A stretch of 64,000 nucleotides of DNA from Catajapyx aquilonaris (taxonomy: Eukaryota), in the NCBI GenBank assembly GCA_000934665.2, contig JYFJ02001846.1:1-64000 (forward strand), given 5' to 3'. Made by a program: the position numbers and the translations under genes. Below, piece after piece: positions 6,991-62,791 of the stretch. The notes beneath the pieces are model-generated. The model searched no databases and was not told the DNA's origin. It saw nothing but the letters and a program-made list of their open reading frames with translations. Numbering within the stretch: the first letter of the stretch is position 1; the number at the start of each line of letters is the position of its first letter.

Positions 6991-7279
6991 TGGCAGATGA
7001 CCGAAGCTCAACCACCCAAGACTCGAACAAAAAAAAAGAAGCGTGTAATTTTCTGGAAGTGAGGGGATGGCAGACACTCCCATCGTAAATGCACGCCGAC
7101 GTCTGAACTTTGAGAGTACTAATGACATCCAGGCAGCAGTTGTAGTTGCAGAGGAGGAGACGAGAATCCAAGAACGGGCCGGACGGAGAAGATGAGTGAG
7201 AATGTCCTTCACACCCGGACCTTCCTGGGGGTGGAATCACGATTTACACTGCCCTTGCACCTGATTTAAGCAGCGTATC

Positions 7280-7575
7280 TCCGGAGGTTGCTTGCCTATG
7301 GAGCAATTTCTCAAGTCACACAGAGACCACTGCACTGCAAACTGCGAAGGTCCAGCTGGTGGAATGGAGCCTAGGGGTATGGTCAAAATATTTGGTCGCC
7401 CAGAAGAACAATACGAGGTACAGTATAACTCATACATAGGTGACGGTGATACTACAACAGTTGGAGCGTTAAAAGCCTCCAATCCTTACACTGGTATTGT
7501 CATCAAGAAAATAGAATGTACAGGCCATGTTCAAAAGAGAATGGGAGGGCGGCATATAAAACTGAAGAAGCAGTT
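7280..7575 (+). pseudogene. Mutator-like DDE transposase core fragment (Kolobok-type elements)
   Basis: HCTANCEGPAGGMEPRGMVKIFGR...YNSYIGDGDTTT...NPY...KKIECTGHVQKRMG. Confidence 0.8.
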
Positions 7576-7729
7576 AGAGCAGAACTCTTGCAAACATTGT
7601 GGACACCACCAACACTGCAATTGGATACACAGAACCTGAGATACACGCTGAGTTGTAGGGAGCTGTTTGTGAAACTCCTTCATTTTCAACGACGCCTCAG
7701 CCTGTGACCTTTGATCCCGAGGTTAATCG

Positions 7730-7957
7730 ACAAATTCACTCAGTCTTCATGAAGAGAGAAACCACCAAATTCATTCATATATAAAAAAAATTGAAGGTGT
7801 TTTTGTTGCCTGATTTGCCATGGAATTACTCAGCAGTCAAAACAGTGAACAAGTCAAGAGTGGTTCTCACTCAAATAGACTGCGTTGCATTCCAAGTGGG
7901 GAAAAAGAGTGAATCACTCACATAGAGCGGAAAACCACTCAAATTTTTTTTAGAGCG
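7730..7957. mobile_element. Probable CACTA-type right terminus with CACTCA subterminal repeats
   Basis: Ends AAATTTTTTTTAGAGCG (rc CGCTCTAAAAAAAA, close to CACTCTAAAA); several CACTCA motifs upstream. Confidence 0.4.
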
Positions 7958-8189
7958 TAGTGCCTTTAAAATGTTTACATATTCACAGTGTGTAATACTG
8001 ATATGGGTTATCTACTTGTTCTGAAGTTGTGCCCATAGGCTTTAATTTGAGACTATTAGGAGCTGTGTGAAGGACAAAGGATATTTATTGCCTAAAACGG
8101 TGCTCATGACTTAATGTTTTCAATGTGCAGAAAATCGACATGAACTTTTGAAGGCATCCGTTGTTCTTCCAATGGGACAAAGTTTGTGT

Positions 8190-19398: not shown

Positions 19399-20001
19399 TG
19401 GCTATGGAAGAAGGGTTTGGTCGCTCCTACACGATGGTGGACGCCATCTTTGGTCCAATATTTTCCCACCTACTATTCACAAGATTCTATTGCACGGAGC
19501 TTCCATTATTCAAGCCTCACCAGTGCCAGTCGGCATGATGGCTGAAGAGGAGGCAAAACACAAGGACAATAAGTTTACCAGAGTCTTTCACACGAGAAAA
19601 AAATGTCTAGGGAGGAAGGCATGGAATACTTGCTGCATATGTGGATCTGCAGTCTATAGACATGGCAAACAACTTCACTCAATTTGAGTCCTTATAGTCA
19701 TACAGAACACGCAAAAGAGCGACTATCTGACGCCCACAATCAGAACACTCGACTGGATCTAATAATTCGACTGAAACTATTAGTGTCCGCTTTTCCCCAT
19801 CCAGTCGATATCACCTGGACATATGCACGAGTTATTCCTGCAGAGATGCAGAGAACAATATGACAGTGTTCTTGGAGTCAACATTGCTACTACATCTGAC
19901 ACCCTTCACAAACCCAGTAGATACTCTCCAAGGGGATAACACAGCACTGTGATTGTAGTACAGCTGTTTGGTATCACTCTGAAGGCCGCACACACACATA
20001 T

Positions 20002-20390
20002 TGTAACAGTATTACCCGTCACAGTATTGAGCTGTTTCTGGAACACCCCCTATTTGACCAAACTTACATCCTACCCACAGTGCACCACTCCCCGTACTGA
20101 TCCTTTCTCCGACCCATTATAATTCAACCCACACTCCTTGCCTAGTACATGCCTAATACCCACAATGCATCACCCCTTTTCTGCCCACTATAAAAACCCG
20201 TCACCCGTTTTGCTCGAGGCCAGTTCCTGGGACAATATCCCGGGGACTGGTCACTCCCTTCTCCCATCCTTCTGATATTCCTACTTCTCCCTACCCCCCA
20301 TTTTTTTGTACCTCTGAGTTACGGTAAAATAAACACCATTCATTTAAGCGAAACCCACGTTTGTTCGTCTTTGTGTCCATCCCTGTCACA
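20002..20390 (+). repeat. 5' LTR (389 bp)
   Basis: TGTAAC...GTCACA; TATAAAAA 20189-20196; AATAAA 20328-20333. Confidence 0.97.
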
Positions 20391-20393
20391 AAG

Positions 20394-20411
20394 TGGTGTC
20401 AGAAGTGGGAT
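20394..20411 (+). promoter_or_regulatory. Primer-binding site for tRNA-Leu
   Basis: TGGTGTCAGAAGTGGGAT, complementary to the ...ATCCCACTTCTGACACCA 3' end of metazoan tRNA-Leu(CAA/CAG); starts 3 nt after the LTR. Confidence 0.9.
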
Positions 20412-20631
20412 ATTCGCAGAATGTGTGTGACCGTAGACAAGTACACTTCTCCGCCGCCGTCTGGAGACTTACTGTGCCTACGAGGGCACGTGCGGACAGC
20501 TGCTCGTCCTGAGCCTGGGTCCATTTGGAACGCAGTGTTTTGCGTACCTGGTCCACTGATCGGATATACCGACGGAGACCGTAATCGACGCCCTACTATT
20601 GGCGTCACCTGTTCATCGTACGTACGATGCG

Positions 20632-20829
20632 ATGGCTTTTGGCATCGTGAACCCTACACGTTTGCCTAGTTTCATCCTTTCCCCATCTTTCCCTCGGTTA
20701 TGGGCTAAAGAAGTGTACTTACCCATGACCGGACGGATATATCCCATCCGTCCCTTTTTTTTCCCTTCCTACTGGTGGATTCCCCAGAACGGAGTCCCCA
20801 GAACCCCTCCCCTTCCTGTGTGTACATGA
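20632..20829 (+). CDS. LTR-element small ORF B (65 aa, Pro/aromatic-rich)
   Basis: ATG 20632; its TGA overlaps the next ATG (ATGA 20826-20829). Confidence 0.3.
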   Translation: MAFGIVNPTRLPSFILSPSFPRLWAKEVYLPMTGRIYPIRPFFFPSYWWIPQNGVPRTPPLPVCT

Positions 20830-21095
20830 AGCAGTCCTACGTCTACGAGAAGCCCACATACGACGTAAATTACTACGAGCAGCCCTTCTCAGATCTGAAA
20901 CTGTTCGAATGTGGCCCGACCAAACACGAGAATCGTATAACAGCTGTGTGCATTCCATGTGTCGGAAGAAGGGCTTGCCTGCCTGGTACATGGAGGAGGA
21001 GCGTAGGTGTGTGTAGTTGTCGTGGTGTGTACGCTCCAAGGACATGTCGCCAAATGCATCGCAACCCCATGACGTCAAGTGGGGCAAGCGAGTAA
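20826..21095 (+). CDS. LTR-element small ORF C (89 aa, Tyr-rich then Cys-rich)
   Basis: MKQSYVYEKPTYDVNYYEQP...CIPC...CSC...C; its TAA overlaps the next ATG (TAATG 21093-21097). Confidence 0.35.
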   Translation: MKQSYVYEKPTYDVNYYEQPFSDLKLFECGPTKHENRITAVCIPCVGRRACLPGTWRRSVGVCSCRGVYAPRTCRQMHRNPMTSSGASE

Positions 21096-21229
21096 TGGAG
21101 GGTGACGATGACCGGATGACAGCCAGACCATTGGAGTGTCACCATGTCCTGGTAGCAGTACAAGAGAAAGGAGACGTGAGAGTCTGCATAGGCCCTCATT
21201 ATTGCCCCGTCCCCTATACTCCGTGGTGA
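21095..21229 (+). CDS. LTR-element small ORF D (44 aa, Cys/His-containing)
   Basis: MEGDDDRMTARPLECHH...CIGPHYCPVPYTPW; starts within TAATG. Confidence 0.3.
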   Translation: MEGDDDRMTARPLECHHVLVAVQEKGDVRVCIGPHYCPVPYTPW

Positions 21230-21504
21230 CCCATTCAGGTGCGTTTGTCGTAGAAATGAACAGCGCAATCAAGGGCCTGAATGGCATGGACCACTAAAAA
21301 ACCTCTGAAAGGTGTCCCTGCACTTGAGGCAAGTTGAGTAAGGAGATTTCACGCATAATGTGATATGGGGCCTTTCCATTTGGACACCCGAGACTATAGG
21401 TGTGGGTGTGTGTCACTATTGAACTGATAAACTTTTGCTTTATAAGGACGTGCTATGTTGTGTGGAGTACCCATTCGCCAGCAGCCCACCACCAAGAAAC
21501 CACC

Positions 21505-22089
21505 ATGGCCTATCCACACGGAACCACCGGGATGCTGCGCGCATCAGCAACAACCACGGTGTCCATATACGGCCGTGATTGGACAGCCCTACTGGATAGC
21601 GGTGCGGTTTCATCGTCAGTCGACAGGAGGGTAGTAGACAGCATTCCAATGAACCTGCGACCCTTTCTCCGTGCTGACAACCGGACCCGTTTGATCATGC
21701 CGGATGGACGCTTGGTGTGGCCTGATGGACGAATGATGCTGCCTGTGGGGTTTGGACCTTGCGTTTTCCAGATTGACCTCTTTGTTGTGGAGACCTCCTC
21801 AGTACCAGTCGTGGTAGGAGGCGATTTTCAAGAAGAATGGGAGTGTCAGCTCGATTGGAGCCGCCACCTGTTTTCTGGGATTGCCCCAGTGGACCCCTTC
21901 GGTGGACCCGATCAACCTCGACGGGGATTTGCTGTTCCGTTTATAGCCTTCGCAAACCTCCCGAGGGGAAGGCCGCCTATACCAGCCCTGCCAGGAGCCT
22001 CACGCGCCCGCCGGAGCCACTCCGCACCTCCCCCACAACCTGATGTCATCGAGGTCAGCTCGTCGGATGGCGACGAGGAACCCTTTTGA
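21505..22089 (+). CDS. Stand-alone retropepsin-type aspartic protease (194 aa)
   Basis: ACCACCATGG Kozak context; ALLDSGAVSS active site; VVVGGDF motif; intact frame; C-terminal VIEVSSSDGDEE. Confidence 0.85.
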   Translation: MAYPHGTTGMLRASATTTVSIYGRDWTALLDSGAVSSSVDRRVVDSIPMNLRPFLRADNRTRLIMPDGRLVWPDGRMMLPVGFGPCVFQIDLFVVETSSVPVVVGGDFQEEWECQLDWSRHLFSGIAPVDPFGGPDQPRRGFAVPFIAFANLPRGRPPIPALPGASRARRSHSAPPPQPDVIEVSSSDGDEEPF

Positions 22090-22448
22090 CTCCTCTGCAC
22101 ATGTGACAACTAAGTGACTCACATACAAAGAAGAAATACACCCGTGGTGGGAATGTAATTTATGTTTTCATGATTGTGATCTGTAGTGTGCGTCGTCTGT
22201 GAACATTACCGGGCGCACCTACTGATGACGTCGTGTGTTTCCTGACGTCCACCCAACCACCAAAGTTAATTTTTTATTTATTTCCCCCTCGTTGACTGTG
22301 AACTGTGCCGGACGAGGCGTCAGACTGTTATATCATTCTCTCTTTTTTTCCCATTTTGTTTTATGTTCAGTTGAAGTATGTCGCGATACAATGATATGGT
22401 GTTAGTTCTGGACCCCATCACACCCTCTTGTTCTGTGGGCCAGTATCT

Positions 22449-22461
22449 GGATGGTGGGGTG
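22449..22461 (+). promoter_or_regulatory. Polypurine tract
   Basis: GGATGGTGGGGTG immediately before the 3' LTR. Confidence 0.7.
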
Positions 22462-22851
22462 TGTAACAGTATTACCCGTCACAGTATTGAGCTGTTTCTG
22501 GAACACCCCCTATTTGACCAAACTTACATCCTACCCACAGTGCACCACTCCCCGTACTGATCCTTTCTCCGACCCATTATAATTCAACCCACACTCCTTG
22601 CCTAGTACATGCCTAATACCCACAATGCATCACCCCTTTTCTGCCCACTATAAAAACCCGTCACCCGTTTCGCTCGTGGCCAGTTCCTGGGACAATATCC
22701 CGGGGACTGGTCACTCCCTTCTCCCATCCTTCTGATATTCCTACTTCTCCCTACCCCCCATTTTTTTTGTACCTCTGAGTTACGGTAAAATAAACACCAT
22801 TCATTTAAGCGAAACCCACGTTTGTTCGTCTTTGTGTCCATCCCTGTCACA
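22462..22851 (+). repeat. 3' LTR (390 bp)
   Basis: Near-identical direct repeat of 20002-20390. Confidence 0.97.
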
Positions 22852-24569
22852 ATATGTTAGGTAATTTCCATAAGTTTCCACGAATAAACCTGCAGACATA
22901 CCGGTATTATGAAAAAAAAATTACGTTTCAGAGCCATGGTCCAAATATTTGTGCCTGGTCGACACGTACAGTTCGGGTAGACATACGGATAAGATTTCGT
23001 TTCCAAATCATTATATTATTCATATTATACTGTACTTCTAATGTATAGAGAGCACGCCCAGTGCATGCCGTCCGATGATATTATATGTCATACGACTGGC
23101 CTATTCTAATTAGTAAGTATTCTAAGACCATTACAAATTTATCCCATGATCAGGGACATGCTATATTATTAGCCTTTCTGATTTCTAGCTGAAATCCTAA
23201 TTGATAACATAATTATGAACTGCTGGTATGAATCCCGAACAAACTAGCACACCATGCGCCAAGCTGTTGCTATTTTATTAAAATATATTATGCAATCTAC
23301 GGTAACAACAAGTAGTATCGGACACATTTCACGTGTTCAACAACAACACTGTGAGACTGCTCATGTCAAAAATCAACAAGCTAACGATTGGCTGACAATG
23401 CACAAAAAATGGCCCACCATTTCTGTCCGGTGGTGGTTACACAAATGCACACCACCAACAAGGGTACCAGCATGTCACATCCCCCCCAGCCTAAAAATCA
23501 CCGGACGTTGATCAACCAATCAGGACGACACTGCAATGAAATTGACGTCATGCACGTACCATTCACACATTATTATTTATCATTAGCACGGAGCCAATAT
23601 TTCATGCAATGAACGTGATTATCCCAATACAGGGGTTAGAAACATCAGGAGGAGAGGGGCTGAAATAACATCCTGGCGGAGAGTACTTGCATTTATTTAC
23701 CATCTAACCATGGATATCTTGGATGCCATCTTCACTGAAAATATCTCGTGCGACGCCACAAAAATTGTTCTTCGAGACATGTCATCGCCCGTAATCTGTG
23801 TAATTCGGCAACAGGTGACCACAGGCACCACCACAATTATTGAAGGACTCAAGCGTGGACAAACGACAACATCCTGCGACCCTGCATGAAACGGCTAAAA
23901 TCTTGCTGCATGACTTTCGAATAAGGTCACTGGATGGGCACAACAACTGCGTATAACTCAATAAAATTAATATTGAGTGGCCACTTCCATTTTGGTGAGG
24001 TTTCTCCCTCACTCTGATGACGGAAGTGATTAAACTATGACCCCTCGACATTCAGTACATTTGAAGATTGAAGGAAGGCAGGATAAGTCAGAAATAATCA
24101 CTGCAACCAACAACGGAAATAACAGTGAGCACATTCTCAAGACAACTATTCCTATATAGGCAGTGTATTTTGAATTTCAAGCAACTATCACCATAACTAG
24201 TTCCGCCTCTATCGAACCCAATACAACATTCCCTCAGGAATTTATTTACTTACACATAACACTTTAGACGACAATAGCTTTCAATGGCAATGTTATCCTC
24301 ACAAGTCACAACCAGGTCTTTACTGACATTCTCATTAGCTCGTATGAACATGACAAATCACCTGAAAAAGTGTTTAAGAAAATCCACTACCGAAAAACTA
24401 TTATATATCGCGACGTGTTGCAGCTTTTAACCACAATATTCTTGTTAACTTGTTGTGCACATCTGTTAAAAATGATGTCCACCCTGTCTGTTCGGCTGGA
24501 CAGCCTCTTCGTAATTTGCATACTCTGTAAACCTTTTCTTAAAACTGTATACTAATTGTGCCATATGGC

Positions 24570-24725
24570 GCACTAGCGCGTCCTTCTGCAGCCACGATCC
24601 ATATAGGGACATGGGTCTACTGGTGTCGGTGCAAACCATACGGAGAAGGCTGCATGAAGCAAGACATCTTCCTCGCACGGCCGCCCAGAAACCTCTGTTG
24701 ACAGTGGCTAAACAAGTGTGACAAT
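24570..24725 (+). pseudogene. Tc1-like transposase HTH fragment
   Basis: GLLVSVQTIRRRLHEARHLPRTAAQKPLLT. Confidence 0.7.
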
Positions 24726-24904
24726 GCTCCCGATACTCTCTCAAAAGGGGAAAACGGATGATAAATTTATTACTGGAATAAAACATGAATCAGGCAACCT
24801 GACATTTACCAATATCGACTATACAGGTGTAGAAGACGCCCAATATTTAGAACACGGCCTGCAACTGTTCAATGTTTAGTCCACTAGTGAAACGTGAATC
24901 CAGG

Positions 24905-60811: not shown

Positions 60812-61206
60812 AAGAAACGGAAGCACTCTGACGATTCCATTGCCACCAGTGGAGGCAACATGAAGAAGCCCCGCCATGAGAAGGTAAATGATCCCAATTG
60901 GAAATATAGTGCCATTTTTAAAGGAGCTTGTTTTCACTAGATTCTTCTGATCTCAACGAGTCTTAATAGCCTTCAATACTGACAAGGGACCTTTCCTGGG
61001 TGATAATACAATGTAATGAATATAAATGATGGATTCTACTTTCTTCTATTGAGGTTTGACAGTACCATTGACTCCTGATGTAACAGCCGCATCTTTAACA
61101 TACACGAGGTAGAGTTGATTATTTCACGATGTCGATGATGCCGAAACTTCCACTATTTTACGAGAAAGACTACAGGCCTTACCTTGCAGCTACACTCTGA
61201 ACCATG

Positions 61207-62791
61207 GAAACTATACGCCGCCTTCCTTGACTTATCAAAAGCCTTTGACACGGTGAACCACGAGAAATTATGGGCAACAATGCAAATGAGCCGTATAAGC
61301 ACTCAATTTATTGCGATTGTGCGTGACATTTACAATAAGTTCCGCATCACTCCAGGCTTAGGCGAACCGGACATACATTTACATGTGGGGAATGGAGTAC
61401 TGCAGGGGGAGGTTCTTTCGCCTGTACTGTTTAATATCTATATAGCAGGCCTCGGGAGAGTTCTAACTGAATCTGGAGCTCATGGTGTGAATTTTGGAGC
61501 GAATCAGGCAGATGTACACTATTTAACCTATGCTGACGATATAGTTTTAATGGCAAGCAATCCACTACACTTGAAAAAGGCATTAGAGACCACTGTAACT
61601 TTCTTTTCCAACATGCACCTGACACTGAATATCAACAAAACCAAAGTGATGGTTTTTAGAAGAGCGGGTCGGCTACCACGAGGTCTGGTGTTCAAGGTGG
61701 CTGATCAACCACTTGAAATTGTTCCCCATTACAAATATTTAGGGGTGATTTTCTCCTCGTCGGGTAAATTTGTTAAGATGGCTGAATCTACAAAGTCCAG
61801 AGCGATAGCAACAATTAATGCTCTTTGGCCTACCTTATTAGACTACGGATACGTGACATTATGTTAGCAAAGAAGCTGTATGTGAGCCACGTTATTCCCA
61901 TTGCACAATACGCTTTTCCAACCTGGGGTACTCGGTACATGGACATTATGGAACAAATTCAGAACTCCTTTATAAAAAAGTTTTTGAGTCTTCCTAAAAG
62001 AACGGCGGGCTTTTTTATTCGGTTGGAAACTGGTATCCCACACTTGGGAATAACGTTGACAAGGCAGGTGATTAAGTTCAATCAGAAGCTTGTAAATCCA
62101 CACATTAACAAACTCCTGGTTGCAGCGTATGGATGCGCGAAGGTACAATCAGTTCAAGGGTCTGTCTCAATTGATTGGTGCAGGGATGTCAATAAGCTGC
62201 TACCCCCAGGTATCTATACTCAAATGCTCAACTCCAACCCGAGTGAGGCGCTCACCTACTTGACAGAGTTCTACGCTAAGCAAGACGAGGAACTTTTGGC
62301 CAATTCTATTTCCTATGCCCCATACTATGCAGCCAAATCTTTAAACCAACCGGAAGTGTATTGGTCTTACAATCTCCCACTAAACCCGCTGCGTACATGG
62401 ATTCGATTGCGTGGTTTACCTAAGGTTCTTTGGTTTCAAAACTATAAGTTTTCATTTGACGGTGGACCATGTGTGTGGTGTAACACGACCTCTGAATCTG
62501 ACCTTTTTCATTTACTTTTTGACTGTCCTTTTTTTGTACTCCCCGCTCTCAATACCTGGTAGATCTGCCCCGCATGCCGCCAGACGGCTTGGCTTTTGTT
62601 TTTAACAACCCTCCCAAAAAACCGATAATGGATGTGCACTATTTTTTTGTGATTGTCTTAAAAAATGTATATAATGGCTGAATAATTGGTTGTCAAAAAA
62701 AGGGAAGTGTATGTAATGACTTGGTTGCGGTGTCCCCCATAAAGGGTTAATCTTACCCTAAAGCCGGGGTACAAATAAATAAATAAATAAA
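61207..62791 (+). mobile_element. 5'-truncated LINE (RTE-X or L2/Crack/Daphne-type RT), frameshifted
   Basis: AAFLDLSKAFDTV, GVLQGEVLSPVLFNIYI, YADD, KTKVMVF, YKYLG, C-terminal CVWC..DLFHLLFDC; (TAAA)n tail; 16-bp TSD TACACTCTGAACCATG (61191-61206, 62792-62807). Confidence 0.93.

Follow-up and report, generated by a model that had tools for sequence, protein, structure and literature searches.

Small LTR elements built around a lone protease-fold gene as probable Ty3/Gypsy satellites in Catajapyx aquilonaris

The genome of Catajapyx aquilonaris holds small LTR retrotransposons built around a stand-alone open reading frame (ORF) with the fold of a retropepsin, and one of them lies in the window, the 64,000-nt stretch of contig JYFJ02001846.1 (assembly GCA_000934665.2) analysed here. 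Our preferred reading, to which we give a probability of about 0.65, is that they are an old, still mobile group of one-gene, non-autonomous Ty3/Gypsy satellites whose protein has a binding-type role. That they form a satellite class, in structure, mobilisation, expression and selection on the protein fold, we regard as very probable.

Results

The element in the window spans 2,850 bp (20002-22851, all its features on the forward strand) and has a 2,071-bp interior. Its 5' LTR (389 bp, 20002-20390) and 3' LTR (390 bp, 22462-22851) both have TG...CA termini and are 99.2% identical, and ATAT stands at either end as a target site duplication (TSD; 19998-20001 and 22852-22855). An 18-nt primer binding site (PBS) for tRNA-Leu(CAG), TGGTGTCAGAAGTGGGAT, lies 3 nt past the 5' LTR (20394-20411), and a polypurine tract (PPT) with the GGGGTG end of relatives and helpers precedes the 3' LTR (22449-22461). 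The original prediction, made from the letters of the window, had named these same signals. Its three LTR differences in about 390 positions are two substitutions and one indel, its perfect ATAT TSD and tRNA-Leu PBS were recovered, and its polypurine tract is present but imperfect, with 10 purines in 13 positions. Two LTRs, PBS, PPT and TSD are the cis features expected of a non-autonomous LTR retrotransposon. The tRNA 3' end complementary to the PBS occurs 11 times in the genome, and ARAGORN called tRNA-Leu(CAG) at one of three scanned loci that carry it. Read from their consensus, TATAAAAA (20189-20196) and AATAAA (20328-20333) are the probable promoter and polyadenylation signals of the 5' LTR; AATAAA is also found in the 3' LTR (22789-22794).

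A paralogue of the flanks on C1108 (92-98% identical) has an empty insertion site with a single ATAT, so the boundaries of the element are exact and the TSD arose with the insertion. The element sits inside a repeat of roughly 2 kb, to which the C1108 paralogue is 83-98% identical by segment (window positions 19638-24895 compared), and the window copy of this repeat carries about 370 extra bases at 22893-23260 that are absent from C1108. Contigs of three runs of one sample also have an empty site; we claim no insertion polymorphism because the C1108 paralogue can account for them. Sequencing run X5, of a kind not stated, covers the element only at the PBS region and at a host-repeat fragment described below. 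Elsewhere in the window, two overlapping ORFs (61139-62562) read as non-LTR reverse transcriptase-like.

The ORF at 21505-22089 encodes 194 aa, has the start context ACCACCATGG and ends in its own TGA stop. It contains the catalytic motif D31-S-G (21595-21603) and the group-specific residues P101, G125 and F142. An AlphaFold2 model of the protein (pLDDT 81.6) has two extra strands at residues 139-152 and a low-confidence tail, and matches the retropepsin domains of Ddi1 (best E 2e-7) and retroviral proteases; with the family profile, chains of Ddi1 and of ASPRV1 score E 1e-6 to 1e-7. Both the fold and, in the window copy, the D-S/T-G motif are those of the retropepsins (clan AA), in agreement with the earlier description of a retropepsin with its own Kozak ATG and stop as the sole recognisable product. 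As D-S-G is retained, the protein could be a working protease. Pfam matches the ORF only weakly (gag-asp_proteas, E 0.15), so domain-based annotation would miss these elements, and they may be overlooked in other genomes.

The element's own subfamily is low-copy, yet it comprises several separate insertions. A DNA search of the genome returned several solo or partial LTRs and, on C5665, a 5'-truncated copy (94% identical) whose ORF is intact. Among eight other LTR loci examined, two have 4-bp TSDs of their own (CTGG and ATTC) and six are cut off or diverged at one end. Inverted-repeat arms at about 1020-1090 and 3290-3370 of C5665 (L002) bracket the truncated sister, which looks as if it had inserted in a MITE-like element and then been partly deleted. 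On C3985 (L033), overlapping ORFs of 282 and 339 aa near a solo LTR (7053-8134, minus strand) give the impression, and only that, of a partial RNA-virus capsid gene.

At the protein level the genome yielded 96 matches, the majority of them within short open frames; 70 loci were analysed and about 26 matches fell outside the set. Two divergent queries recovered largely the same loci. From the 70 came 34 stand-alone ORFs (145-259 aa, 31 with a Met start as read) and 20 pol proteases; the tree omits the remaining 16, which are broken, partial or unrelated. An LTR pair, 95-100% identical, surrounds the stand-alone ORF in 16 elements, while 19 of the 34 ORFs were counted without two flanking LTRs demonstrated. 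Perfect 4-bp TSDs flank 12 of the 14 elements tested (2.2-3.7 kb), a test that left out C3118 and C3881, with their truncated or recombined 5' LTRs; the size range of the group is 1,926-3,994 bp. On C487 (L088) a stretch of 8 kb contains a pair of protease ORFs and a pair of PBSs, as nested elements would. A 7tm_7 chemoreceptor adjoins one relative and points to an arthropod host.

Gag, reverse transcriptase (RT), RNase H (RH) and integrase (IN) gave no match in any of the 16 interiors in six frames, where a full pol query matched the protease (PR) region only, and a gag profile from co-resident elements reached a best E of 0.24 over the 96 frames. The predicted lack of these four products is thus a property of all 16 interiors, and the upstream ORFs give no sign of a frameshifted gag. 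Nor does the element align as a gag-pol element with an internal deletion: comparison of its interior with 20 gag-pol loci found no similarity at the DNA level (best E 0.2), no interior collinear with a full-length parent was found in the assembled sequence, those loci included, and the element is one of a group of 16. Its protease is 30-38% identical to gag-pol proteases. Interiors of non-sister elements share little at the DNA level besides the PBS.

Outside this genome, two word-index searches found no relatives. With the profile, 4,914 proteins scored E <= 0.001; among the best 150 of these the match is confined to the core in nearly every case, and no protein of up to 260 aa has the SIM-like tail described below. 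An Atlas comparison gave generic retropepsin clusters only. The group with its specific extension is known from one genome, other eukaryote genomes being outside the scope of the search.

In the protease tree, which is midpoint-rooted only and has long branches and some open nodes, one branch (98/95) separates the 34 stand-alone from the 20 pol proteases. G125 is found in 100% of the former and 0% of the latter, and F142 in 97% and 6%. The structural residues D107, D117, P73 and G75 are kept. At the catalytic site, ten of the 34 have D-S/T-G, five have the Asp only and 19 are without Asp; eight of the ten D-S/T-G proteases cluster together, with loose support, and branch away from the majority of the Asp-less proteases.

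Selection on the protease was measured by dN/dS (Nei-Gojobori) in 15 pairs, not all of them independent. The ratio is 0.12-0.27 in 11 pairs (p < 1e-6); one of the other four is saturated and three close pairs give 0.32-0.76, the window element's among them. That pair, a single one at 94% identity, has a ratio of 0.76 (0.42 in the core) that is not significant (p 0.39 and 0.17). The dN/dS check proposed in the original prediction therefore has a clear outcome for the group and not for the element's own pair. As judged by these ratios, the fold is under purifying selection across the group, with significance absent in the window subfamily. Four independent Asp-less pairs, which occur in young elements with TSDs, have ratios of 0.21-0.25. 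Such conservation, in a protease free of frame-breaking indels, argues that cutting is not selected in most lineages, and on this comparison the catalytic Asp is dispensable there.

The region upstream of the protease behaves differently. Between sister elements it has accumulated 106 indels, 88 of them frame-breaking (four pairs), compared with two indels in the protease, neither frame-breaking (three pairs), so the protease is the one conserved gene. The idea that the element keeps its own proteins, in the plural, finds no support in these frames. The short ORFs of the window leader (61-89 aa from ATG; 20412-21438) have no Pfam or gag match and, judging from relatives, are probably not genes, sister copies covering few of them. 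The leader of C5090 (L093) has a 330-aa ORF before the protease, which is 236 aa and frameshifted in the sister C5763.

Within the window leader, 20826-20885 is a sense-strand match (83% over 66 columns, E 7e-12) to a family of host repeat proteins. These are Tyr/Glu/Gln/Lys-repeat proteins (SYGYEQPKYEK-type) with a hydrophobic N-terminus, encoded by intact-looking multigene copies on C504, C637, C1036, C2453, C2733, C2897, C4033, C4617, C6728 and others (L138-L149); the one protein tested had no Pfam match. The family is very deep in run X5. It is matched by 10 of 47 leaders, all in sense and four at E <= 1e-10, versus none of 23 gag-pol or other long-ORF regions, and shuffled leaders gave at most one match (E >= 0.007). 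The weaker matches may reflect just a TACGAG motif. The host repeats are rich in TAC-GAG codons, which makes co-packaging followed by template switching a plausible route of capture. TACGA itself occurs 70 times in the helper 5' untranslated regions (UTRs), in 14 of 14, versus 5.5 in shuffled sequence, and 88 times in 21 small-element leaders versus 24.5; the window leader holds TACGA motifs like the helper repeats.

A putative internal TATA-like box, TTTATAAG (21439-21446, score 7.8), lies 66 nt ahead of the protease ATG, and no ATG intervenes between the likely start site, near 21470, and 21505. With a weight matrix approximated from the consensus and applied 40-140 nt before the ATG, 27 of 31 elements reached a score of at least 6, against 38 of 212 control windows taken upstream (p 4e-14) and one of 20 gag-pol loci; for a score of at least 8 the counts are 19, 20 and 0. 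A separate short protease mRNA would fit this box. Splice acceptors ahead of the ATG are not significant (median 1.15 versus 0.16, p 0.063), and a spliced protease mRNA was therefore dropped in favour of the internal promoter.

SUMO-interacting motifs (SIMs) combine a hydrophobic core with an acidic/Ser stretch. A C-terminal tail of this type, with a hydrophobic core and then Ser/Asp/Glu, is present in 13 of the 34 proteins (shuffled mean 0.15, maximum 2 in 1000) by a strict pattern that was defined after the data were seen and that 21 do not have. With 5 changes on the tree the pattern is clustered, and the 13 cases cannot be counted as independent. In the window protein, VIEV followed by Ser/Asp/Glu (22045-22080) fits the consensus and lies in the low-confidence, disordered region of the model. 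Among the 34 protease rows, only the element's subfamily combines D-S-G with such a tail. The tail, the putative internal promoter, the loss of the catalytic Asp in most relatives and the captured host fragment go beyond the original prediction. Basic NLS-like patches are a marginal signal: 4 of 30 tails have them, against 1.9 after shuffling, and 45 of 1000 shuffles score at least that many. A scan of 10 helper loci found a SIM-like stretch in C5362 only: VLII with an Asp run, in a long tail past the integrase (L111, 1481-2683, minus strand).

The co-resident tRNA-Leu Gypsy elements encode gag and PR-RT-RH-IN and have the same PBS as the small elements. C5362, C8822, C8786 and C9450/C8367 are 5.9-6.6 kb where both LTRs are seen, their gag and pol lie in different, overlapping frames, and their named RT/RH matches are 38-57% identical. 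The U5 end and PBS of the window element (20366-20411) are common to the gag-pol family C9450/C8367/C4250; 44-45 of 45-46 nt are identical in C9450/C8367. The original prediction of an autonomous partner sharing LTR ends and PBS, with the element as satellite of a tRNA-Leu-primed Gypsy helper, finds its counterpart here, and the common U5 end, PBS and TSD length would fit mobilisation in trans.

Grouped by eye, the U5 ends of C839, C1407, C2093, C3359, C1072, C1105 and C2236 are of the C9450/C8367 type, those of C5090 and C5763 of the C5362/C8822 type, that of C3881 of the C5082 type, and those of C2226, C2191 and C487 of the C4844/C986/C4271 type. Three different U5 types occur within the well-supported protease clade C2236/C3118/C3881, which suggests that small elements exchange LTR ends between helper families. 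C1297 (L123), a gag-pol relative of 5,933 bp whose two LTRs are identical, has a different PBS, TGGTGGCAGCGGTGGGAT; primer switching has therefore occurred in the helper clade.

Discussion

The life cycle that we propose starts from what the anatomy shows: with its LTRs, PBS and PPT in place, the element inserts whole and makes a 4-bp TSD. RNA from the 5' LTR would be packaged, reverse-transcribed and integrated by Gag and Pol of the tRNA-Leu Gypsy helpers, and the TACGA repeats that small elements and helper 5' UTRs have in common may, at a guess, be a packaging or enhancer signal. The conserved TATA box suggests that the protease would be translated from a separate short mRNA that ends within the 3' LTR. 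With its fold under purifying selection and its catalytic Asp dispensable in most lineages, the protein would be an accessory factor that raises transposition in the cells that express it. Because this mRNA would be distinct from the genomic RNA, we expect the protein to act in trans, and with catalysis dispensable, binding is its likely role. Selection on the protease is most simply explained by this raised transposition.

What the protein binds is a matter for more tentative judgement. In Drosophila the piRNA pathway is coupled to heterochromatin through contacts between SUMO and SIMs, according to the part of that work seen (10.1101/2021.07.27.453956), and SUMO-marked host silencing or chromatin factors, reached through the SIM-like tail, are our leading though tentative candidate; more speculatively, the protein might there be a decoy, or a cutter in Asp-retaining copies such as the window element. 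Pairing with the helper protease in Gag-Pol, which would tune particle maturation, is possible and comes next in our ranking. Some other role is doubtful, and a supply of proteolysis to the helper is unlikely. It is likewise speculative, if possible, that the whole is a satellite class with a helper-derived, separately transcribed, often catalytically dead protein that engages SUMO-dependent silencing, switches helpers via LTR ends and picks up host mRNA.

Other explanations start from the protease as an enzyme. The satellite might be a trans source of active protease for helper Gag when the separately framed Pol protease is limiting, with the Asp-less relatives a later offshoot. The different frames of helper gag and pol would suit this, as would the window copy and nine others that keep D-S/T-G, eight of them loosely grouped apart from most Asp-less proteases. 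However, 24 of the 34 catalytic sites are non-canonical, the Asp-less pairs in young elements are as conserved as described above, and the window protease is just 30-38% identical to any helper protease, which together make the idea unlikely. Retropepsins are dimers that need both Asp residues. An Asp-less protease might hence poison helper protease dimers and be kept by host selection as a form of restriction, and the retention of D107, D117, P73 and G75 would agree with it. But the gene is carried by young insertions, low in copy number and spread over many sites whose TSDs differ, for which dN/dS is most simply read as selection during transposition, and complete inhibition of the protease would stop the satellite from copying itself; we think host-side restriction quite improbable.

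Two further explanations give the protein little weight. A main role for the RNA itself, in which captured pieces of host genes would give rise to small RNAs or to host mimicry and the protease would come second, would account for sense-strand host matches in 10 of 47 leaders and in none of the 23 long-ORF regions, yet the other 37 leaders do without such a fragment although all carry the protease ORF, leaders are indel-rich, and the weaker matches may be TACGAG motifs; we consider it very improbable. Chance internal deletion of a gag-pol element, with the protease ORF a neutral remnant, draws on the subfamily itself, in which a single full copy is accompanied only by a 5'-truncated one (94%) and by solo LTRs, and whose one pair gives no significant selection. 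It is largely refuted by the absence of DNA similarity to the 20 gag-pol loci, the clustering of the stand-alone proteases, their own ATG, stop and TATA box, and purifying selection across the group, and we give it almost no credence.

On the favoured reading, of satellites with a binding protein, the group would imply that the retropepsin fold has a use, so far unrecognised, that needs no catalysis and from which a transposon profits in trans. A whole radiation would have kept the protease alone, under its own predicted promoter and at a dN/dS of about 0.2, while mostly discarding catalysis. Its natural active and dead variants, with and without the tail, offer a test set for anti-silencing or helper-tuning factors in animal retrotransposons; C487, for instance, has D-S-G and no tail, and C1407 and C1072 have the tail and no Asp.

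We found no description of a protease-only LTR element in the literature searched; Repbase, most subscription journals and supplements were outside its scope, and prior naming is possible. As predicted, the element fits neither the non-coding (TRIM/LARD) nor the gag-centred (TR-GAG) class, having a coding ORF and no gag. In the parts of the sources seen, TR-GAG, GAG/PROT and gag-protease-only ATHILA elements are, like the window element, non-autonomous and helper-dependent with intact LTR, PBS and PPT; they also are without RT, RH and IN and may retain the protease, but they keep gag, and the ATHILA forms are internal deletions of gag-pol of about 3 kb (10.64898/2026.03.01.708851; 10.64898/2026.03.20.713144). 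In the window group, by contrast, no gag ORF is retained (profile best E 0.24; Pfam blank), ATG, stop and TATA-like box are the protease's own, and the Asp is often lost.

TRIMs and LARDs are likewise short and non-autonomous, and animal Helenus elements have 4-bp TSDs and some a tRNA-Leu PBS; they are described as non-coding in the part of the paper seen, whose main text does not contain the word protease (PMC10886601). By size, TRIMs are under about 1 kb and LARDs over 4 kb, as given in the part seen of another source (10.64898/2026.03.01.708851). The window group is 1.9-4.0 kb and has a gene under purifying selection; the window element itself has 2,850 bp and a 194-aa ORF whose relatives give dN/dS of 0.12-0.27.

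The co-resident tRNA-Leu Gypsy elements share the PBS, TGT...ACA termini, a PPT ending in GGTG/GAGG, a TACGA-rich leader, a homologous protease and the 4-bp TSD (C5362, C1297), and differ by gag and PR-RT-RH-IN and a length of 5.9-6.6 kb. Ddi1/DDI2 and ASPRV1, the best structural and profile matches, are also stand-alone retropepsin folds, in Ddi1 coupled with ubiquitin-binding modules, but they are host genes at 15-20% identity, and the element proteins stand nearer to the pol proteases of Gypsy elements (30-38%). BARE-2 keeps the remainder of pol. Like the window group it lacks functional gag and is a parasite of an autonomous partner, according to the part of the source seen (10.64898/2026.03.01.708851). 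The window group, in contrast to BARE-2, has kept the protease alone.
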